A stretch of DNA of 64,000 nucleotides, taken from an uncultured delta proteobacterium (GTDB lineage Bacteria; Desulfobacterota; Binatia; UBA9968). Under the pieces are notes generated by a model. That model was not told where the DNA came from, searched no databases, and was given only the letters and a program-made list of their open reading frames with translations. The number at the start of each line of letters is the position of its first letter. Within the stretch, counting starts at the first letter, position 1. A program made the translations under genes and the position numbers. This document shows, one piece after another, positions 6,966 to 17,838 of this stretch. The stretch covers positions 512,001 through 576,000 of the forward strand of contig CAVTUQ010000002.1 in the NCBI GenBank assembly GCA_963737905.1. The letters run 5' to 3'.

Positions 6966-7046
6966 GCCATTTTTCACCACTACTATATCAAACCCAAACC
7001 TTAGTGGATTTGAGTTGCTTGGGATCAAACCTTTCGGTTAGGCCGG

Positions 7047-7399
7047 TTACGCAAACACTTCCATTTTCTCCAAGGTAATCGAAATAAGTCTACATCCGGA
7101 TACAAGAGCCTGCTCGATGTCATTCCACTCAGAGGCCAACACACTGAAAAGCCGAGTATTGCTACAGTTGCCCCGGCGACGTGAACGACCTGCGGCGGAG
7201 CACCGTACAGCAACGCTCGATCGTAGAAGTCCGTGTCTTTACTGAAGATAACGAGACTCTCTACTCTGCCTCGCTCCCAAATCTGCGTGTCGGTGGCCGT
7301 CAACAGATTTCGATCAAAAAGATGTTCGGCTTCGTGACGCTGCGATCTCAACCAAACACACAGGCGTGGCGGAAGATTCGCGTCGACAAGAAACTTCAC
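7047..7399 (-). pseudogene. DUF5615 PIN-like toxin, frameshifted at ~7172
   Basis: MKFLVDANLP...DTQIW...IFSKDTDF; continues in another frame as GNCSNTRL...EVFA*; GTGA overlap with DUF433. Confidence 0.8.
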
Positions 7400-7620
7400 T
7401 TGGTCAGCGGGATTTCGCGATGGGCCACGTGACGCGCCGCATATTCGAGACACGCATCAATGTCGGCTTTTTCAAGGTAGGGAAAGTCTTGCAGCATTTG
7501 CTCCGGCGTCATCCCGCCGGCAAGCATTTCAAGCACATGGCTCACCGTAATTCGCATGCCGCGAATTGTCGGCTCACCACCGCACACATCCGGTTTGATT
7601 GTGATACGATCAATAGGCAT
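7396..7620 (-). CDS. DUF433 domain antitoxin
   Basis: RITIKPDVCGGEPTIRGMRITV..VLEML..GMT.E..L.DFP.L...DI.ACL.YA. Confidence 0.92.
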   Translation of the reverse strand: MPIDRITIKPDVCGGEPTIRGMRITVSHVLEMLAGGMTPEQMLQDFPYLEKADIDACLEYAARHVAHREIPLTK

Positions 7621-9127: not shown

Positions 9128-9616
9128 CTAGGCTGCTCTCTTCTTCTTGAGGGAAAACTCGATCTGATAGCCAGCGAGTTCTGCCAGCCGAATGAGCTGG
9201 AGGATCTGTTTGGAGGCCTTGTTTTCTTGGAGCAAGCGCACCACCTGGGACGGAGAAGTATCAAGAGCGTCCGCAATCACACGAACGGATAGCCGGGAAG
9301 TCGAGAGCTTGTCCTTCAGTGCGCTCTTTAGCTGATTCAACGGCGACCAATGGTAGGTGGGATCACAATAGTACAAGACGAAGTCAGCCGGGAAATCCCC
9401 CTTTGATCCATCTTCGAGAAGAAAGGACACCGCTTGGTCACCCAGCTCGCGATCTATCGTGATCGACGTAAATCGATTCCTACTGCTAATCTTCACATCC
9501 CTGAAAACCGCGAAGGGTAAACTGTAGCTCTTTATCTTCTTTCCATCCCGCAGAGTGACCTCCAGTACGTTCTTTCGGTAGTTCGGTTTGATTTCCTTGA
9601 ATTTCGGGTTTCTCAT
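9128..9616 (-). CDS. Putative antitoxin (DUF2442-like N-terminus plus C-terminal HTH)
   Basis: ORF directly after a DUF4160-like gene; LSVRVIADALDTSPSQVVRLL helix-turn-helix. Confidence 0.65.
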   Translation of the reverse strand: MRNPKFKEIKPNYRKNVLEVTLRDGKKIKSYSLPFAVFRDVKISSRNRFTSITIDRELGDQAVSFLLEDGSKGDFPADFVLYYCDPTYHWSPLNQLKSALKDKLSTSRLSVRVIADALDTSPSQVVRLLQENKASKQILQLIRLAELAGYQIEFSLKKKRAA

Positions 9617-9809
9617 AGAATCCCCCTCTTTCCGTAAAGTCTCCAAAGCCTTCTTTCGCCTCCGGCGTCATCTTTCCCTCCATCACCGTCCACGTTTCGT
9701 TATTGAACTTGAGAAGGCGCTTCTTGTCCTCAAACACATGAACGTGCTTTGGATCGTGGTCCGTGGAAAACAGCACGACTATGACGCCATGACGCTTCCA
9801 CCGACCCCT
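9613..9809 (-). pseudogene. DUF4160-like toxin remnant
   Basis: GRWKRHGVIVVLFSTDHDPKHVHV (H..P.HVHV motif); AGG at the expected start codon; extra bases in runs at ~9654 and probably ~9623. Confidence 0.65.
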
Positions 9810-10249: not shown

Positions 10250-10979
10250 CTAGGGCTCCCATCGATACAGATGTACCGGGACCGGCTCACCTTCACTAAC
10301 GAGCGCAGCCTCGTAACCGTCGCATACATTCAGTTCGGCCAATGACCAGCCGGGCACGTTTGCGTTGATCCGCACGTGCTTCTCGCCAGCGAGGGTAATT
10401 TCCACTTCGTCCAATTGCCCCGAAAGACCCGTGCCTTTGGCTTTTAGGAAAGCTTCTTTGCTTGTCCAACACTTGTAGAACGCCTCCCTCTGGAGATGGA
10501 GGTGGAAGAGCATGAAGCGCTGCCACTTCTCTGGGTGTAAAGAATCGTTGGGCCACCTCGTCGAATGCGAAATCTTCTCTAACCCGCTCCACATCAACGC
10601 CGATTTCTCGGCCTCGGGTCACAGCGATAAGCACCCTCTCGTGGGAGTGGGATAGATTAAACTCAAACTTCTTCTTGGCATGAATGGGCGCCAGTTTCGG
10701 CTTGTTGTAGGGACCCGAGTCAAACTGCAACTCCCGAGCAGCGCTGTTTACATAATTGGACAAGATCGATCTCAGCGCAGCATGAGCGACAACGTACCGT
10801 CGTCGGTCTGTTTCAAATTTGAATCTCGAGGCTCGCTCTTGCTCTGCCGAAGATAAAAGCCCTTCGAAATCTAGCGAAATCTTTTCACCGTTGGCTTGGA
10901 CCAGCCAAATATGAACTTCATTTTCGCTTATAGCGAGACTTGAGGAGGAGCCCGGTCGAACCAAAAACGGATTGAGCAT
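10250..10979 (-). CDS. Sfp-type 4'-phosphopantetheinyl transferase, +1 frameshift at ~10500
   Basis: KPKL, FNLSHS, IGVDVE in ORF 10296-10979; FYKCWTSKEAFLKAKGTGL in ORF 10250-10597. Confidence 0.9.
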
Positions 10980-11056: not shown

Positions 11057-11257
11057 TCAGGTCGCTTTGTGGGGAATTTCTTCTACGTAGATATCGAAGA
11101 CGGAGCCGGTGGGAAGATCGACGGTCTTGGTGTGCATCAGGTCGCCTTCGAAGAAAAACTCGATCCAGCTGCGGTTTTCGGAGACTCCGAGTATGATGCC
11201 GGCGACGCTTTTGATCGAGTCAATGATCTCGTCTCCGTTGGGGAGAGCTTCACCCAT
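11057..11257 (-). CDS. Small hypothetical protein, possibly 3'-truncated
   Basis: ATG with GAGG RBS 11 nt after the ligase stop; coding-like codon usage. Confidence 0.55.
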   Translation of the reverse strand: MGEALPNGDEIIDSIKSVAGIILGVSENRSWIEFFFEGDLMHTKTVDLPTGSVFDIYVEEIPHKAT

Positions 11258-11268
11258 GCAATCGACCT

Positions 11269-12798
11269 CTAGTTCGAGAGCAGCGTGTCGGCCTCTCGTA
11301 TTAGTTTTCCCGACGAAGTACGAGGCAGCGACTCACGGATAACGATCTTTTGCGGAACTTTGAAGTTTGCCAGATTACCACGCAGAAAGGTCAACAGCTC
11401 TTTCTCGACGATGTTATCTCCCGGCCGCGCCACTATGGCGGCGCCGATCACATGGCCACGCTTTGGATCCGGCATGGCGAAGACAACCGTCTCCTGTACA
11501 CCCGGATAGGTATAGATCAGATTTTCCACCTCGGCGGGATAAACGTTTAGTCCGCCGGTGATGATCATGTCGTCACGCCGCCCCAGATGATAGTAATAGC
11601 CGTCCGCTTCAACCTTGCCAACGTCGCCGGTGTAGAGCCAGCCATCGCGAACACGCGCTGCCGTTGCCTCCGGTTTTCGAAAATAGCCTTTCATCACATG
11701 CGGGCCGCGGGTGATAATTTCGCCCGGCTCGCCGATGGGCACTTCTTTGCCCGCCTCATCGACGATTTTGACCTCGACGCCGGGGACGGCCCGGCCAATG
11801 CTGCCCATCTTGGTTTCTGCCTTTTCCGGCTCGACCAATGTGATCATGGGCGACGTTTCGGTGAGTCCGTAGCCTTGGATGACTTTGATGTGGGGTTGAG
11901 CCGATTGGAACGCGCGTAGCAACGGCAACGGAATACTGGTCCCCATCATAGCGGCAATTTTAACGCTGCTAGTATCATAGCGGGCGAGGTCCCGCACTCC
12001 CAGGAGGAGCTGAAAGACAATGGGCACGCTTTCGAAGACCGTAACCCGATGTCTCTGAATGCCTTCTAAAAGCGTCACCGGATTGAGCTGGTCAAAAATC
12101 ACCAAAGTAAAACCTTTGTCCGCCACCTCATTGCAGACGATGGGTCCGACGATATGCGACATCGGCAGGACACAGCCCCTGATCGTAGAGCCATCAGTGA
12201 TGCCGATTTCACCCATCACACGGGGATACTGGGCAAGGTTTCGGTAGCTCAGCACTACGCCCTTGGGCTCCCCGGTGGTTCCGGAAGTGTAGAGAATCAA
12301 CGCGTCATCATCGGCGTGGAACTGGGGCGCACTGGCTGGCGCTGACGGCACGGAGAATCTCTTCTCGAAACTCTCATCGCCTTCCCCGTTGACCACCCAG
12401 AGGGGTATTCGCCCCAGCTCTTTGAAAGCTTCCTCCGCCTCGGCGCGCAGCTGCTGGTGCACGATGAGCAATTTGACAGCCGCATCCTTTAGAACACCTT
12501 GCAGCTCTTTTCCCTTTAGTCGTGCGTCGAGGATGACGGTCACCGCAGCGATCCTTTGGGTGGCGAAGTAGGTGAGAGGGATCGCAGCGCAATTCGGCAA
12601 CAGCACTCCGACGCGATCGCCTTGGCGAATGCCCGCCTGCTGCAGATGTGCCGCCAGTCCTTGCACCCGCTGGTTCAGATCCGCGAAAGTCAGTTTCTCA
12701 TCCTTGGTGATGATCGCGGTTTTGTGCGGCTGACGCTGTGCGGTCTTTTCCAGAACTTGCGCCGCGAAAAAGCCTACTGAGCCGGAATCGTTTGCCAT
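11269..12798 (-). CDS. Long-chain acyl-CoA ligase (class I adenylate-forming enzyme)
   Basis: YTSGTTGEPKG, GYGLTE, YTGD, GGLNVYPAEVE, LPRTSSGK. Confidence 0.93.
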   Translation of the reverse strand: MANDSGSVGFFAAQVLEKTAQRQPHKTAIITKDEKLTFADLNQRVQGLAAHLQQAGIRQGDRVGVLLPNCAAIPLTYFATQRIAAVTVILDARLKGKELQGVLKDAAVKLLIVHQQLRAEAEEAFKELGRIPLWVVNGEGDESFEKRFSVPSAPASAPQFHADDDALILYTSGTTGEPKGVVLSYRNLAQYPRVMGEIGITDGSTIRGCVLPMSHIVGPIVCNEVADKGFTLVIFDQLNPVTLLEGIQRHRVTVFESVPIVFQLLLGVRDLARYDTSSVKIAAMMGTSIPLPLLRAFQSAQPHIKVIQGYGLTETSPMITLVEPEKAETKMGSIGRAVPGVEVKIVDEAGKEVPIGEPGEIITRGPHVMKGYFRKPEATAARVRDGWLYTGDVGKVEADGYYYHLGRRDDMIITGGLNVYPAEVENLIYTYPGVQETVVFAMPDPKRGHVIGAAIVARPGDNIVEKELLTFLRGNLANFKVPQKIVIRESLPRTSSGKLIREADTLLSN

Positions 12799-13778
12799 AT
12801 GGAAAACGCCCTTTGAAAAGGTTTATACCAGCGCGACAGTTGCGCCAGCTCGCCGCGTTTAAGCTTTAACTTTCCTTGCTGCGTGGCGAGAAAAGGATCG
12901 ATGCGGTTACTGAATACCGCTCTCCACCACTCCTCTTTGCCGCTGATCATGAACTCGCCATCTGTCCCCTGATTCAATTCAGTGATCTCACCGGCAACGA
13001 ATTTCACGGTCCAAGATATATCTGTTTCCTCCAGATGGAGCGTCAGGGACGTGGAAAGACTGGTCTCGCTGCCGTGATTGCGAAATGTCGGATCTTCATT
13101 GGCGTGTTCCACCAGCGCCGCCATGTGTTCCTGGGAAAACAAAACGTAGTTTTTGCCGTCAGCGAGCGATGCGGTTTTCCCGTTTTGCGCTTGACTCGGC
13201 TGCGAGCTTGCCCCGCGCGTCGCCGCGGCACCCTCCTTGAAAAACTGGCAGTGAACCGCCTCCTCAAGCAAATCTGTCAACAGAAAGGCTTCTTGAAGAT
13301 TCTTGCCGATCGCCACCGTGCCGTGACCCTTGATGATTACCACCGGATGATATTTAAGCCCTTCTACGACCGGCTCCGGTTTTGTCACCGTCGGCGTGTC
13401 CTGCGGGATGATGGCTACCTCGCCGATCGTGTATTTCTCTTCAAAACTGACCGGCACAAAACTCTCGTGGGTCAATGAAAAGGCCAGCACCATGGGCGGG
13501 TGGACATGGACGACGGCTTGGGCATCGGTGCCCTCATACACAGCTAGATGCAGCGGTGTTTCACTGGAGGGCCGCTGCTTTTCTCTCTGCGGCTTACCCT
13601 CCTGATTGATCCGTACGAGATCCTTCGGTGTCAAAAAGCCTAGGGCCGCCTGCCGTCCGGTGATAAGAAACTCTTTTTTGCCGACCCGGCAGCTCAGGTT
13701 ACCACCCCAGCCGCTGATGAGCCGCCGCTCGAAAAGCAGCTTGCCCCACCGAATCATTTCGCGTTCGGTCTTCGTCAT
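12774..13778 (-). CDS. Class II aldolase/adducin family protein fused to a C-terminal SCP2-like domain
   Basis: GGNLSCR, PSSETPLH, VVHVHP, KGHG; C-terminus LFSQEH..AL...NED..F...ISG...W......IDPFLA..QGKLKLK.G; TGATG overlap with the upstream gene. Confidence 0.85.
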   Translation of the reverse strand: MTKTEREMIRWGKLLFERRLISGWGGNLSCRVGKKEFLITGRQAALGFLTPKDLVRINQEGKPQREKQRPSSETPLHLAVYEGTDAQAVVHVHPPMVLAFSLTHESFVPVSFEEKYTIGEVAIIPQDTPTVTKPEPVVEGLKYHPVVIIKGHGTVAIGKNLQEAFLLTDLLEEAVHCQFFKEGAAATRGASSQPSQAQNGKTASLADGKNYVLFSQEHMAALVEHANEDPTFRNHGSETSLSTSLTLHLEETDISWTVKFVAGEITELNQGTDGEFMISGKEEWWRAVFSNRIDPFLATQQGKLKLKRGELAQLSRWYKPFQRAFSIWQTIPAQ

Positions 13779-15313
13779 CAGGCAGCTCCGCTGGCATCTT
13801 TGAATATCGTCCAAGGCAGAACTTCGCTCTCGAGGGGATACACGGAAACTCCTGCCGGGCAAATCTTCTGACCCAAGAAAGTCGACACATCAAGGTCCGC
13901 TCCGGAACCCTCTGGCATTTCCGACGCAAGCAACTCGATCGGTATCTTATGATGGCGTGCCAAGCGAACCGCCAGCAGCGAGCCACAAATCCCGCGTGGT
14001 CCTTGTTCGCTCAAGCCATCGTAAAATAAGCAGAGCTTGCGAATCTCGCCATGAGCAAACAGAAAACCCATCATGTTGTCGGAGATCAAAGTCGTCGGTG
14101 TATTGCGAGCAAGTAGTTCGCGAGCCACGACTCGAGGGCCCCATAGCTGGGGTCGCATTTCGGGAACTAAGACACTGTGCGCCTGCTCAGCCTTAAGCGC
14201 ATGGGCCAAGAATGGATAGTTCTGTTTATTCGGCACACCGTAAACTAATAGATACTGCGCCGGCGGCTGGCTGCCGTTTTGTGCGGCTGCCGATGGCATT
14301 TTCAGATATCTCTTCCGAAAGCTTTCCGGCGTGAAGAGGTCATCAAAACCCACTAAGGAACTTATCAAGAACGAAGGGGTTATGTCGAAGGCCGGATAAC
14401 GACAGGCGAGCTTTTCCGCGCCTTCCGCGACCAGCGGCCGTCCTTGAAATACGAGGATCTCAGCGGCTGGCCGCTCTTCAATCGTGACGTCATCGCCTTG
14501 GACCAAGCTACCGGGGTCCTGCACCAAGACGTGGAAAGGGATCCCGTACTCCTTCGCCATCAAGGCCAAAGGATACGTTCCGACCTTGTTGATCACGTCG
14601 CCATTCTGCGCGCAACGATCGGAACCCACGATAACTGCGTTGACTTCTCCCTTTTCCATAACCTGAGCAGCCGCGCAGTCCGGAATCAAGGATACCGAAA
14701 CGCCTGCCTGTGCCAGTTCCCACGCCGTGAGGCGTGATCCTTGTAGATAGGGTCGCGTTTCCGTGGCAATGACGGAGATCTCTTTGCCCGCCTCTCTACA
14801 CGACTGAGCCACCGCCACGAGCTCGCCACTGATGTTGCAGTGCGTCAGCACCCGTGCAGAAGCCGGTAGAATGGAGGCCGTGCGCTTGGCCCGGGAAAGC
14901 CGTGCTTGGACAATCTGTCCCACGAATCCATGCGCCTGTTCTACCACCCACTCGCCAACACTGCTGCCGGCCGGCAGTTCGGCGAGCCACCTGGAGAAAA
15001 AACCGAAGAGACCATTGAAATCGAAGGTCGGGCGCGCGGCGGAGAATTGCCGGGTCATTTGTACGAGCTGACTCTCTAGAGGGGCAGGGTCGTCACCTCG
15101 ATATTCCTGGGCTAGCAACGCACCACTGTAGAGAAAAGCGAGCACCTGTCCGAAAGCTCGGGTCTTCATCTCCCTAACGGCATCGACGGCGTGGGAAATT
15201 CCATCAATCCGAATGTATTCGATCCGCTCCGGGATCAAAGTTTCATCAAGGATTTTGAAGCCGCGCCCCTCCCACAAAACCGGTTCGAACAGCGGACTGT
15301 GCACGAGTTTCAT
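13778..15313 (-). CDS. mtnA: Methylthioribose-1-phosphate isomerase-like (eIF-2B family) protein with a second degenerate domain
   Basis: RPT, THCN, ETRPYLQGSRLTAWEL, VGSDR..NGD..NKVGTY, IEER, PAFDITP; extra ~170 aa with EMRPQLWG.R..AREL......TLISDNM. Confidence 0.85.
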   Translation of the reverse strand: MKLVHSPLFEPVLWEGRGFKILDETLIPERIEYIRIDGISHAVDAVREMKTRAFGQVLAFLYSGALLAQEYRGDDPAPLESQLVQMTRQFSAARPTFDFNGLFGFFSRWLAELPAGSSVGEWVVEQAHGFVGQIVQARLSRAKRTASILPASARVLTHCNISGELVAVAQSCREAGKEISVIATETRPYLQGSRLTAWELAQAGVSVSLIPDCAAAQVMEKGEVNAVIVGSDRCAQNGDVINKVGTYPLALMAKEYGIPFHVLVQDPGSLVQGDDVTIEERPAAEILVFQGRPLVAEGAEKLACRYPAFDITPSFLISSLVGFDDLFTPESFRKRYLKMPSAAAQNGSQPPAQYLLVYGVPNKQNYPFLAHALKAEQAHSVLVPEMRPQLWGPRVVARELLARNTPTTLISDNMMGFLFAHGEIRKLCLFYDGLSEQGPRGICGSLLAVRLARHHKIPIELLASEMPEGSGADLDVSTFLGQKICPAGVSVYPLESEVLPWTIFKDASGAA

Positions 15314-15340
15314 GTTTCTATCGCGACGCGAGCAACGGAT

Positions 15341-16075
15341 TCATAGAAAGCGTAGCGCTTGCTGCGCGACCTCAACCATCTTTTCTTCAGCGGCAAGAAA
15401 CAGCGGGTCGCGAAAACCAAACCTACCATAGAGACACTCGTCCGAAACCGCCAGAATGGCGCCGGCCTTCTTTTTTCTGAGTTGGGCAATCGTGAGGAAC
15501 GTGGACGTCACCATATCGATGCTCGTGACCCTCTGCTCGTTCAACTCCTGAATGAGCTCCGGCGTCTCCTGAAACAGAGCATCGGTGGTGAAAATCCAGC
15601 CCAGATGATGGCGAACGTTTAAGCTTTCGGCCGCCGCTTTCAGAGCCGCAACAATATCAGGGCTGGCAACCGTGGAAAAACTCTTGGGCACGTAGTAGCT
15701 CGTCGTTCCCTCGCCGCGGACCGCGCCGGTGACGATCACGAGATCACCGATCTTCACTTGATCCTGCAACGAACCGCAGCTGCCGATGCGAATCAACAAT
15801 TCCGCCCCTGCGGCGCAGAGGATTTCCGTAGTCATCGCCGTGTCCGGCGCAAAGCGCCCGCCGTTGCCGACGGTCACTCTTTTCCCCCCGAGGGTCCCCG
15901 TGTGCATCTCATAATCCAAAAACGTGAAATTCTTTGTCGGATGATCCAGCAGGCCGAGCACCATTTGACTCCGCTCTTTCGGTCCGGGGATCAGCGCATA
16001 GGGTCCGAGGGTATCGGATTTGAGACCCAACATCGCAAGCATTTTCTGCGGCGTGAAATGTGGCTCTTTGACCAT
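15341..16075 (-). CDS. Nucleoside phosphorylase (PNP/UDP family 1)
   Basis: ALIPGPKER, LIRIGSCGSL, GDLVI..GAVRGEGTT..Y, TTDALF, IDM, AVSD. Confidence 0.88.
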   Translation of the reverse strand: MVKEPHFTPQKMLAMLGLKSDTLGPYALIPGPKERSQMVLGLLDHPTKNFTFLDYEMHTGTLGGKRVTVGNGGRFAPDTAMTTEILCAAGAELLIRIGSCGSLQDQVKIGDLVIVTGAVRGEGTTSYYVPKSFSTVASPDIVAALKAAAESLNVRHHLGWIFTTDALFQETPELIQELNEQRVTSIDMVTSTFLTIAQLRKKKAGAILAVSDECLYGRFGFRDPLFLAAEEKMVEVAQQALRFL

Positions 16076-16079
16076 GGAT

Positions 16080-17318
16080 TCAGAGCGCCTGGGAAACAAA
16101 CTCCAGCAGATCCTGCGTTGGCAGAGCGTCATGGGAGCAGTTAGCGAAGCTCCGCTGGCATAAGGCGCTTGAGGTTAAAACTAGTTCCGCACCGGTGTCA
16201 TTGGCTTCGCGCATCCGGTCCTCGGCGTTCCACTGCGCCAGCTCCGGGTACGCCTCCGGCACACCACCACCACCGCCACAACACCAAGCCCAACGCTGAT
16301 TACGTTCCATCTCCACCAACTCAATTCCTGGAATGGAGCGCAAAATAGTCCTCGGCGCTTGGTAGACGCCACAGCCACGGCCAAGATGGCACGAGTCATG
16401 ATACGTGACTTTTTTCCGCATGGTCTTGCTGAATTGCAGCCGGTTAGTTTTCACCAGATCTTCGACGTATTCGACACCATGAAGAACCGAGATTTTGAAC
16501 TCCGCTTTCTTGGCATACTGCTGCCAAATGCGCCGGCAACTCCCGCAGGCAACCACAACTTTGCCGATCCCGGCTTCCTTGATCCTGCTCAGGTTCTCGT
16601 TCTCCAACCGGTCGTACTCCCGCCGGAACCCCAGATCAAAAGCGTAGAGGCCACAACATTTTTCCTCGTCGCCCAGAATAACAAAATCTTCATCGGCTTT
16701 TTTCATTAGCTTCGCGAGAGCGATGGCACCCGCTCTTCCACTGTTGCCATCCGCCGAACAGCCGGCGAAGAGCAGTGTGGTGGCACCGCCGCTGCCGAGC
16801 TTTTTCAATCCCAGTTCGTTTGCCCAAAGCCCCCGCTCGGCTTGGGGCCGCGACCATGGATGGTCATATTGTTGCAGACCCTCGAAGAGCGGGCGATGGG
16901 CTTCGATGGGTCCGTCCTTTTCGGTCATTTCCTCACGCATCGCGACCGTGATGTCCCAGGGCCCATATCCGTCGTCACGCACCCCACAGAGCTCCTGACA
17001 CATCAGACAGTTTGTGCATGTATACATGACTTCCTTGAGTTCGGGTGTGATGGTATCCAGCCCATGAAACACGCGCTGCGCCATGAGCCAGCGCGACTTC
17101 GGCGTAAATCTTTGAAAGCGATAGAACTCGTAGGGCGGACACTTGCTCTTCGGCCCCGGAACATCCTCCATCGGATTGGCAGGGCCATGACCGTAACAGG
17201 AGCCGCACAGGACACAGCCCGCGCTGCGCTCTTCGAGCCCCTTGGCATAGAGCCACTTTTTGACTCGTTCGAGGCCGTGCGGTTTGTTGGTGTCGCTTTT
17301 CACAGGAATTAGGTCCAC
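16080..17318 (-). CDS. Fe-S oxidoreductase (GlpC/GlcF/HdrD-like, CCG domains)
   Basis: CVLCGSC, CTNCLMCQELC, CCG, YHDSCHLGR, CCGGGGG. Confidence 0.9.
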   Translation of the reverse strand: MDLIPVKSDTNKPHGLERVKKWLYAKGLEERSAGCVLCGSCYGHGPANPMEDVPGPKSKCPPYEFYRFQRFTPKSRWLMAQRVFHGLDTITPELKEVMYTCTNCLMCQELCGVRDDGYGPWDITVAMREEMTEKDGPIEAHRPLFEGLQQYDHPWSRPQAERGLWANELGLKKLGSGGATTLLFAGCSADGNSGRAGAIALAKLMKKADEDFVILGDEEKCCGLYAFDLGFRREYDRLENENLSRIKEAGIGKVVVACGSCRRIWQQYAKKAEFKISVLHGVEYVEDLVKTNRLQFSKTMRKKVTYHDSCHLGRGCGVYQAPRTILRSIPGIELVEMERNQRWAWCCGGGGGVPEAYPELAQWNAEDRMREANDTGAELVLTSSALCQRSFANCSHDALPTQDLLEFVSQAL

Positions 17319-17325
17319 GTGAGAA

Positions 17326-17369
17326 TACTTTAAGCGTTAACTTTATAACCTGTAAATAACTCCTGTCAA
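17326..17369 (-). promoter_or_regulatory. Promoter with candidate MarR operator
   Basis: TTGACA-N18-TAAAGT in an AT-rich spacer, overlapped by imperfect palindromes TTTACAGGTTATAAA and TTAACGCTTAA. Confidence 0.5.
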
Positions 17370-17379
17370 CAAACCCGAG

Positions 17380-17838
17380 CTACTTTGCCAAGGCAACGCG
17401 ATTGAGTTTGCGCAGGAGAGCGGAAAGTTCCTTTTGTTGCGGCTTGTCGAGTGAAGAGAAAATTCGTGAGATACTTTTCTCATATAGCGGAATTGTAGTT
17501 TTATATAGCTTGGCGCCTTTTTCCGTCAGTACCACATGAACCACGCGACGATCATTCTCGTCTCGCTTACGAGAGACCAGTTTTTTCTCTTCCAAACGGT
17601 CAACGATGCCTGTGAGGTTGCTCACCGTCACCATCATCTTCGCCCCGATTTCCCCAAAGGGAAGCCCGCCAGCGTAGCCGATGGTCGCGAGCACGTAAAA
17701 CTGAGGCGGCGTGAGACCCAACTTCTCGAGATCCTCCTCGAGTTTCTTGTGCGAGAGGAGGCTAAAGCGGAGAAATCTGACCCATAAGCCCGTGGTATAG
17801 GATGAAAAAAAAGGACGTTTAAAAACGACCACGTGCAT
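17380..17838 (-). CDS. MarR family transcriptional regulator
   Basis: GLTPPQFYVL, NLTGIVDRLEEK.LV.R...NDRR...V.LT.KG. Confidence 0.92.
   Translation of the reverse strand: MHVVVFKRPFFSSYTTGLWVRFLRFSLLSHKKLEEDLEKLGLTPPQFYVLATIGYAGGLPFGEIGAKMMVTVSNLTGIVDRLEEKKLVSRKRDENDRRVVHVVLTEKGAKLYKTTIPLYEKSISRIFSSLDKPQQKELSALLRKLNRVALAK

Follow-up and report, generated by a model that had tools for sequence, protein, structure and literature searches.

In the dihydroxyacetone phosphate (DHAP) shunt, a trio of enzymes is described as splitting a 5'-R-adenosine into free base, DHAP and the aldehyde R-CH2-CHO (PMC10986504, PMC6079011), and in two other described routes the radical S-adenosylmethionine (SAM) enzymes HpnH and MqnE add an adenosyl radical to their substrates (PMC13459092). 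Here we describe an operon that may join these two chemistries. It lies in a stretch of 64,000 nucleotides (the window; contig CAVTUQ010000002.1, positions 512,001 to 576,000, assembly GCA_963737905.1) from an uncultured delta proteobacterium (Desulfobacterota; Binatia; UBA9968), whose genome we call G000; other G numbers denote compared genomes and L numbers fetched loci. A MarR gene and a promoter are followed by five close-packed enzyme genes, all open frames on the minus strand (Table 1), encoding a CCG-domain Fe-S protein, a nucleoside phosphorylase, an MtnA-like isomerase, a class II aldolase fused to an SCP2 domain, and a CoA ligase. An earlier note on this DNA had described the same arrangement, and every part of it was found in place, with domain calls in agreement. 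The note read the operon as DHAP-shunt chemistry on an unusually bulky or hydrophobic 5' substrate, followed by oxidation and CoA activation, and sequence, fold and context continue to speak for this chemistry. Where the note pictured a stand-alone catabolic unit, the evidence instead links the operon with three partners whose genes lie elsewhere: a B12 radical-SAM enzyme, an FAD oxidase and a transporter. Our best reading, to which we give a little less than an even chance, is that the radical-SAM enzyme adenosylates an acceptor and that the operon then trims the adduct to R-CH2-CO-CoA.

The radical-SAM orthologue of G000 (G000:C2:394408-395889; 39.5%, 394 bits, the next match scoring 109) heads an operon with a short-chain dehydrogenase/reductase, an FAD_binding_4 oxidase and a TenA/haem-oxygenase-like protein. 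Its B12-binding and radical-SAM Pfam domains both score above cut-off, and the CxxxCxxC cysteines C213, C217 and C220 are invariant in 12 sequences. The best NCBIfam match is BchE, at 166.9 bits against a cut-off of 481, and the protein belongs to no named B12 radical-SAM equivalog, HpnJ included. Profile searches of 301 genomes of the phylum recovered the phosphorylase family in 12 (E<=1.6e-69, next 1e-38), 10 of them outside the class, and the radical-SAM family in 14 (E<=4e-159, next 6e-90), namely 12/12 phosphorylase carriers and 2/289 others. Within a class sample of 121 genomes the phosphorylase is present in 13, and the radical-SAM gene in 8/13 of these carriers and 0/108 of the others. 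Four of the five class carriers that lack it hold operon remnants only (the phosphorylase alone in G349 and G381, with a short aldolase in G365, and with an isomerase fragment in G397); in the fifth, G304, the FAD oxidase lies 835 nucleotides (nt) from a contig end. The linkage is also physical, the radical-SAM gene lying inside the fetched locus in 8/10 distant genomes and in 17/19 metagenome loci that have 9 kb upstream. Given so constant a partner, and the precedents of HpnH and MqnE, the radical-SAM enzyme is the probable maker of the 5'-R-adenosine. Its tree divides into a clade linked to polyketide synthase (PKS) genes (30 rows, support 100) and a second group, free of PKS, to which the window's enzyme belongs (18 rows, support 94); named homologues are mostly from Candidatus Omnitrophota. 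In G283 and G389 an O-methyltransferase gene comes after the radical-SAM operon (L197:12904-13938, L198:12872-13903); it is absent at that place in G000.

The phosphorylase departs from its relatives at the active site. Its best NCBIfam match is uridine phosphorylase, under the cut-off, and its 14 matches include no MTAP model. Mapped by motif to E. coli numbering through five PDB alignments, the residues R35, R96, S99 and D212, invariant in 24 sequences, are the equivalents of Arg24, Arg87, Ser90 and Asp204. The first three of these are described as the phosphate site and Asp204 as the N7-protonating residue, with Arg43 contributed by the neighbouring subunit and Glu181 binding ribose (PMC6193948). 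In the window protein L53 and V189 stand where 5/5 printed PDB alignments show the neighbour-subunit Arg and the ribose-binding Glu. This replacement of the ribose Glu is family-wide, DM[VI] standing in place of xME in 148/148 loci, and the two changes go together: among 127 full-length cluster representatives, 15 have the DM[VI] pattern and 0/15 of these have Arg at the Arg43 position, vs 86/112 of the others. In a quick tree the module phosphorylases and the DM[VI] representatives form one 32-row clade (SH-aLRT 97); the MTAP of G000 falls outside it, as does the HpnG of G000, on a long branch. Arg74, considered as a charge clue, is not kept across the family. The canonical MTAP frame of G000 (C14:89744-91441) encodes 565 residues and is possibly fused to a second enzyme, the usual MTAP being about half that length.

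The isomerase is remodelled in a comparable way. The catalytic domain spans residues 1 to about 335, in which R52, R94, C159, Q191, D232, N242 and K243 are invariant in 44 sequences; we take their roles to be those of the corresponding residues in B. subtilis MtnA. A non-catalytic second IF-2B half follows at about residues 345-511, its 170 C-terminal residues lacking the Cys, Asp and NK motifs. This half is a gene of its own in some distant clusters and missing in many others, and one query found it in 10/37 metagenome loci, with some others listed under a different label. Compared with three solved MtnA proteins, the isomerase has a 7-residue deletion after the catalytic Cys, so that the spacing from Cys to ETRP is 26 in 76/76 family isomerases vs 33 in the canonical copy. 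In B. subtilis MtnA the deleted loop lies over the methylthio group, and ribose-1,5-bisphosphate isomerase lacks it too. Loss of the loop agrees with a different, possibly larger, 5-substituent, without fixing which. By score the protein is no MtnA equivalog (TIGR00512, 227.8 bits vs a cut-off of 279), and Glu164, considered as a further charge clue, is not kept family-wide. A separate canonical mtnA, whose co-occurrence with the module the earlier note had suggested checking, is present in 12/12 carrier genomes; G000 also has a separate MTAP and an shc-hpnG-hpnH cluster of its own. Because canonical MtnA is encoded separately in all carriers and the pockets are remodelled across the family, the operon enzymes are best regarded as dedicated paralogues.

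The aldolase occupies residues 1 to about 190, with E73, H91, H93 and H152 invariant in 42 sequences and presumably serving as in E. coli FucA, and the SCP2 domain covers residues 211-332. The Pfam score of the latter is below cut-off in the window protein (16.9 vs 21.3 bits) and above it in an orthologue (33.7 bits). Its identity, proposed in the earlier note, is secured by the fold: in an AlphaFold model (mean pLDDT 86) the region matches Thermus SCP2 (2cx7) with Z 18.2 and an rmsd of 1.7 A over 120 residues, and the next-ranked matches are other SCP2 proteins. The module aldolases form one clade (99/97), 24/26 of them with SCP2. The closest solved structures to the ligase are feruloyl-CoA synthetase and FadD13, and no acetyl-CoA synthetase is among its 18 PDB matches at E<=1e-60; of 49 loci, 44 start it with ATG and 4 with GTG. 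The remodelled pockets, the SCP2 domain, a ligase unlike those for acetate and the separate canonical copies together indicate that R is probably neither H nor SCH3. G000 also encodes a second fusion of SCP2 and class II aldolase in the reverse order, SCP2 first (G000:C28:80864-84884; L073:10865-14885). It sits behind a fusion that joins an FGGY kinase to a 2-hydroxyacid dehydrogenase, falls outside the module aldolase clade and possibly represents another cleavage route, for a lipid-linked sugar.

The earlier note had assigned the aldehyde oxidation to the Fe-S protein with a partner it could not name. The FAD_binding_4 oxidase of the radical-SAM operon (G000:C2:392084-393607) lies about 134 kb from the CCG gene, yet its orthologues (at least 80%) and those of the CCG protein occur in the identical 8/28 genomes, and the nearest homologues of the two proteins are adjacent genes in G024, G113 and G121. 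This matched distribution, together with the adjacent homologues, points to the FAD oxidase as the missing partner, and the CCG protein is likely its electron-transfer subunit. The two score far under the glcD and glcF cut-offs.

A shared promoter motif provides a further link among these separate loci. Of 48 intergenic regions between MarR and CCG, 40 contain TTGAC, with a TATA-like box and then the palindrome AGTTAA-N4-TTAACT behind it. The motif matrix, built from 34 orthologous MarR-CCG sites only, is AT-rich and matches frequently in low-GC genomes, and it was therefore applied only within the window's family. In the 6.7 Mb of G000 there are 96 sites scoring at least 11, of which 15 fall within the 2589 intergenic gaps, and the window palindrome scores 20.1, second best in the genome. 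The motif reaches at least 11 ahead of the radical-SAM operon in 6/7 family genomes, with scores of 13.1 (G000), 18.2, 15.5, 15.4, 12.3, 11.6 and 7.2 that were matched in 12, 1, 0, 5, 16, 5 and 224 of 2000 shuffles, respectively. A second radical-SAM copy in G283 has a motif of 18.6, and the motif is absent from the promoters of the extra copies G389b and G325b and of the G333 copy. It also precedes an operon on G000 C3 that encodes DUF1302, DUF1329/LolA-like, Ycf48-like and MMPL proteins; the DUF1302 promoter scores 13.2, 12.2 and 11.6 in 3/3 genomes examined, the gene being found in 2/5 others searched. The MarR protein is likely a repressor that binds the palindrome, and we infer a MarR regulon of three operons: the trimming operon, the radical-SAM/FAD oxidase operon and the DUF1302/MMPL transporter. 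A second strong palindrome (17.8) lies within the aldolase gene (window 12856-12871), about 60 nt ahead of the ligase start, and is not seen at the same place in L074 or L193. UbiD-family genes were considered as regulon members and set aside; the palindrome is present at two such loci of G000 (G000:C44:21449-22948 and C19:40964-43522; scores 17.6 and 17.8), and among five orthologues of the first locus only the one in G405 carries it (16.0).

Beyond the class, the module appears in a different setting. Ten distant-genome loci, two of them on contigs of only 2-3 kb, contain the isomerase in 10, the radical-SAM gene in 8, the aldolase-SCP2 gene in 7, the CoA ligase in 6, MMPL with a LolA-like gene in 6 and an aldehyde dehydrogenase (ALDH) in 5; in G121 the module is embedded in a type II PKS cluster. 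A metagenome set consisting of the best 80 of 554 confirmed loci, ranked by likeness to the G121 protein and hence biased to its kin, was counted over loci with enough flank for each gene. It has the isomerase in 51/53, the aldolase with SCP2 in 33/36, the ligase in 17/21, ALDH in 30/31, an amidohydrolase in 35/41 and the CCG gene in 0/21, ALDH standing in for the CCG gene. The synteny of ligase and SCP2, on which the earlier note had staked its interpretation, is thus kept in distant lineages. The chain length factor (CLF) of these clusters has Asp at the Cys position in 21/21; AntE of the Photorhabdus ant cluster is likewise described as Asp-type, in a PKS that needs the ligase AntG (PMC6638757). 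Searches of G000 turned up no type II PKS, only FabF-like matches of 40-43% and no aromatase match, and CLF searches in G107, G074, G169, G229 and G283 likewise gave only FabF-like matches (best 40-44%). As no PKS was found in these carriers, the module relies less on a PKS than on the radical-SAM enzyme. In L201 (G138:C4:38000-57900), L202, L205 and L206 the PKS cluster encodes two additional enzymes, an aldehyde:ferredoxin oxidoreductase and a PanE-like reductase, and that of G138 also has a glycyl-radical enzyme, the matching activase and one more radical-SAM copy.

From the observed genes, folds, residues, distribution and motif we infer the following reactions, along with the place of the ligase relative to the radical step and the identity of R. 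The radical-SAM enzyme would transfer SAM's 5'-deoxyadenosyl group to an acceptor that would be hydrophobic and probably aromatic, as its linkage and the precedents of HpnH and MqnE suggest, and the phosphorylase would then free adenine by phosphorolysis. The MtnA-like enzyme, its catalytic residues in place, would perform the aldose-ketose isomerisation of the resulting sugar phosphate, and the aldolase, likewise catalytically intact, would release DHAP by retro-aldol cleavage and leave acceptor-CH2-CHO, with SCP2 presumably holding the hydrophobic aldehyde during this step. Oxidation of the aldehyde to the acid may fall to ALDH in other lineages and here perhaps to the CCG protein with the FAD oxidase, and the ligase would activate the acid with CoA or acyl carrier protein (ACP), giving acceptor-CH2-CO-CoA. 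In most of the distant clusters the acceptor or the product would connect to the type II PKS; in the window's lineage the acceptor may enter through the DUF1302/LolA-like/MMPL system that has the same promoter motif. That R is aromatic is suggested in the one group by the PKS, which comes with an aromatase and an amidohydrolase, and in the other by the transporters. More tentatively still, we would extend this to a general picture of a new B12 radical-SAM family that uses SAM as a two-carbon donor, with a retooled DHAP shunt leaving a thioester-activated carboxymethyl arm on an aromatic or lipid acceptor, in company with a type II PKS in Omnitrophota-type and other anaerobes and under a three-operon MarR regulon in Binatia-type soil bacteria, the product being a lipid, a pigment or a quinone-like cofactor.

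Several observations weigh against this proposal. Most cobalamin-dependent radical-SAM enzymes are annotated as methylases (PMC13459092), and two conserved active-site residues are gone from the phosphorylase, whose chemistry may therefore differ; this last possibility takes up whatever probability the explanations discussed here leave over. HpnH and MqnE are not members of the module's B12 radical-SAM family, and GlcD-type oxidases mostly act on hydroxy acids rather than aldehydes. The radical-SAM count in the phylum comes from a profile built from 8 of the 12 carriers, with four carriers not included, and from scoring 5 candidates per genome, among kin that are not independent. The long metagenome loci L161 and L170 have no radical-SAM gene within 20 kb, and a ketosynthase is present in 14/14 long metagenome loci. 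In G024 the arrangement is MarR-ligase-radical SAM without a phosphorylase of the module family, and the ligase may therefore act ahead of the radical step; G333 retains the radical-SAM gene, the trio and the ligase and has lost SCP2 and CCG. The cluster ligases split into two clades and may not share a single origin, and the lowest of the radical-SAM promoter scores, 7.2, is that of the main copy in G283.

Some of these points would suit by-product disposal, in which the radical-SAM enzyme methylates or cyclises an acyl- or aryl-CoA made by the ligase, the trio recycles 5'-deoxyadenosine or methylthioadenosine (MTA) to DHAP and acetaldehyde, and SCP2 does no more than tether the enzymes to the membrane or hold them in a complex. 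We regard this, the main rival, as unlikely. It explains the radical-SAM linkage equally well, accommodates the trio-free G024, the SCP2-free G333 and the usual methylase role of B12 radical-SAM enzymes, and would allow acetate as starter of a PKS with an Asp-type, AntE-like CLF. The known 5-deoxyribose clusters are, moreover, described as paralogues alongside methionine-salvage genes (PMC6079011). Yet handling 5'-deoxyadenosine would not call for the whole family to lose the ribose Glu and the isomerase loop, and the retention of SCP2, a ligase not of the acetate type and the canonical MtnA of every carrier also speak against such a role.

We think it improbable that the operon degrades or salvages an imported nucleoside with a bulky 5' substituent, such as a long alkylthio-adenosine or an adenosyl adduct from other cells, and that the radical-SAM enzyme comes in afterwards, on the acyl-CoA. 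Most metagenome loci place the module in a biosynthetic PKS operon, and the reduction of the operon to remnants where the radical-SAM gene is missing is consistent with dependence on the radical-SAM product. These observations stand against the MarR control and the DUF1302/LolA-like/MMPL operon with the same motif, the absence of a detectable type II PKS from the searches of G000, G107, G074, G169, G229 and G283, and the TRAP transporter and amidohydrolase that flank the radical-SAM gene of G333, all of which would be in keeping with import.

Very improbable, in our judgement, is a third route to the naphthoquinone head group that, in the manner of the futalosine pathway, draws on C4' and C5' of SAM. 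The idea arises from quinone genes in the window's family, where a futalosine-type decarboxylase is present in 8/8 genomes (TIGR03701 above cut-off), mqnA/D and mqnE-like genes in G405 only and menB in none, and menB is present in 6/6 members of the sister family, where the operon survives as remnants. It is countered by G006, G138, G199, G107, G037, G074, G169, G229 and G405, which hold futalosine genes plus the module, and by G333, which has the module without the decarboxylase. Futalosine salvage was also considered and dropped, the MqnC-like match of G000 being CofH-type; MqnA/MqnD, MqnC and MqnE were not found in G000 (87% complete) or in 6/7 family members. Elsewhere in G000 are genes that, from the look of their sequences, we take to be CofG-, CofD- and CofC-like. 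Late futalosine-type genes lie at G000:C43:27100-29578 (L209; a decarboxylase above cut-off and an MqnP-like prenyltransferase), and mqnA/D, mqnE and menB were not found in 7/8 family genomes. Shortening of the adenosylhopane side chain to a C32 acid, the substrate on which the earlier note had speculated, is scarcely credible: G000 has shc, hpnG and hpnH, and SCP2 folds bind lipids, but shc is present in only 2/12 carriers (it was not found in G283, a 100% complete genome of the window's family with the whole operon, or in the single-contig G037), the phosphorylase scores 22 bits vs an HpnG cut-off of 187, and the HpnG of G000 lies outside the phosphorylase clade.

The operon and its surroundings are listed in Table 1.

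Table 1. Features of the operon and its immediate surroundings, in window coordinates.
Feature	Position	Strand	Remarks
MarR-family regulator	17380..17838	-	Pfam MarR, E 1.7e-17
Sigma70-type promoter	17342..17369	-	TTGACA 17369-17364, TATAAA 17347-17342
Palindromic operator-like motif	17327..17342	no strand	consensus AGTTAA-N4-TTAACT, directly past the -10 box
CCG-domain Fe-S protein, 412 aa, 4Fe-4S dicluster	16080..17318	-	Pfam CCG x2 and Fer4_8
Divergent hexameric-type (UP/DeoD-like) purine nucleoside phosphorylase, 244 aa	15341..16075	-	Pfam PNP_UDP_1
MtnA-like pentose-1-phosphate isomerase with second IF-2B half, 511 aa	13778..15313	-	Pfam IF-2B
Class II (FucA-type) aldolase-SCP2, 334 aa	12774..13778	-	Pfam Aldolase_II
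Acyl/aryl-CoA ligase, 509 aa	11269..12798	-	Pfam AMP-binding
Small open reading frame (ORF), no known family, 66 aa	11057..11257	-	shortened; orthologues 100-107 aa; 23/36 loci
Sfp/HetI-type phosphopantetheinyl transferase (PPTase), split across two frames	10250..10979	-	variable neighbour, 20/31 loci

The junctions between the five enzyme genes are, in order, a 4-nt gap, a 27-nt gap, a 1-nt overlap and a 25-nt overlap. Gene order is nearly invariant across 54 related genome loci, and retention, counted over the loci long enough for each gene, is 45/45 for MarR, 48/49 for CCG, 53/54 for MtnA, 51/51 for the aldolase, 49/50 for SCP2 and 47/48 for the ligase. Unrelated neighbours are kept as well (an RNase Z-like gene in 46/54 and a peptidase in 40/54, as raw counts regardless of locus length), and synteny within this close group therefore says little by itself about a pathway. 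Pairwise-identity correlations among four operon genes range from 0.66 to 0.88 over 22 loci, values that are descriptive only, since kin share history. Two soil metatranscriptome runs from one study contain pieces of 150-400 nt over the ligase, aldolase, isomerase and CCG genes, which are no proof of transcription.

The second IF-2B half, the promoter palindrome, the truncated sixth ORF and the frameshifted PPTase downstream are additions to the earlier description. The small ORF matches no Pfam family and has no usable ESM Atlas match; contigs from two runs diverge from the window at 11060 and continue with a longer coding sequence. At 10501, within the PPTase, contigs from two DNA runs are one letter shorter, and the split is a strain change or an assembly error. 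Further downstream, a lower-GC stretch (window 9128-9776 and 7025-7453) contains small toxin-antitoxin- or helix-turn-helix (HTH)-like genes, among them a 96-residue ORF with an HTH protein; an ORF of this stretch presumably resembles DUF5615.

If radical adenosylation followed by trimming is correct, a pathway known only for waste disposal would have been turned into a building step, and SAM would serve as a two-carbon donor outside the futalosine pathway and hopanoid synthesis. An abundant uncultured soil lineage has the module as a fixed component, and a widespread uncharacterised type II PKS cluster also contains it, which would point to a common but undescribed metabolite. By naming the missing partners (radical-SAM enzyme, FAD oxidase and transporter), the regulon makes the question approachable with defined genes. 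Even were the trio to serve by-product disposal, the Glu-less phosphorylase family and the two-part MtnA would be new enzyme families. Judged by its sequences the module works like a DHAP shunt, but its phosphorylase and isomerase fall short of the MtnP and MtnA equivalogs, and it is undescribed: no description of it was found in full-text searches, which cover few subscription journals.

With the DHAP shunt (MtnP, or MtnN and MtnK; MtnA; Ald2) and with DrdK/DrdI/DrdA, as these are described, the module shares a phosphorylase together with an isomerase and an aldolase of class II in one operon, with base, DHAP and an aldehyde as predicted products (PMC10986504, PMC6079011). It differs in that its phosphorylase is UP/DeoD-like rather than MtnP and lacks the ribose Glu, its isomerase lacks the 7-residue loop and has an extra dead half, and its aldolase carries SCP2, while genes for oxidation and CoA ligation and the link to one B12 radical-SAM family are added. 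The pairing of CCG protein and FAD oxidase resembles GlcD/GlcF-type pairs in joining an FAD_binding_4 protein to a CCG protein whose homologues are adjacent elsewhere, whereas the window's pair is split between separate operons and stays below both cut-offs. The distant clusters resemble the Photorhabdus ant type II PKS (AntDEF, AntB, AntG) as described in having a ketosynthase, an Asp-type CLF, an ACP, a cyclase, an aromatase, a CoA ligase and sometimes a PPTase (PMC6638757); they add the radical-SAM enzyme, the amidohydrolase and the trimming module, and G000 is without such a PKS. The HpnH/HpnG route offers a described precedent, in which a lipid undergoes radical adenosylation and a phosphorylase homologue then removes the base (PMC13459092), but most carriers lack hopanoid synthesis and the module's radical enzyme has a B12-binding domain; moreover, HpnG retains all five ribose carbons, whereas the module is predicted to retain two. 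Two ribose carbons are also what the product of the futalosine pathway (MqnE, MqnB, MqnC, MqnD) retains. In that pathway MqnE is described as adding the 5'-deoxyadenosyl radical to an aromatic precursor (PMC13459092), much as we propose here; the module, in a genome in which MqnA/D, MqnC and MqnE were not found, would instead trim its adduct by phosphorolysis, isomerisation and aldol cleavage.

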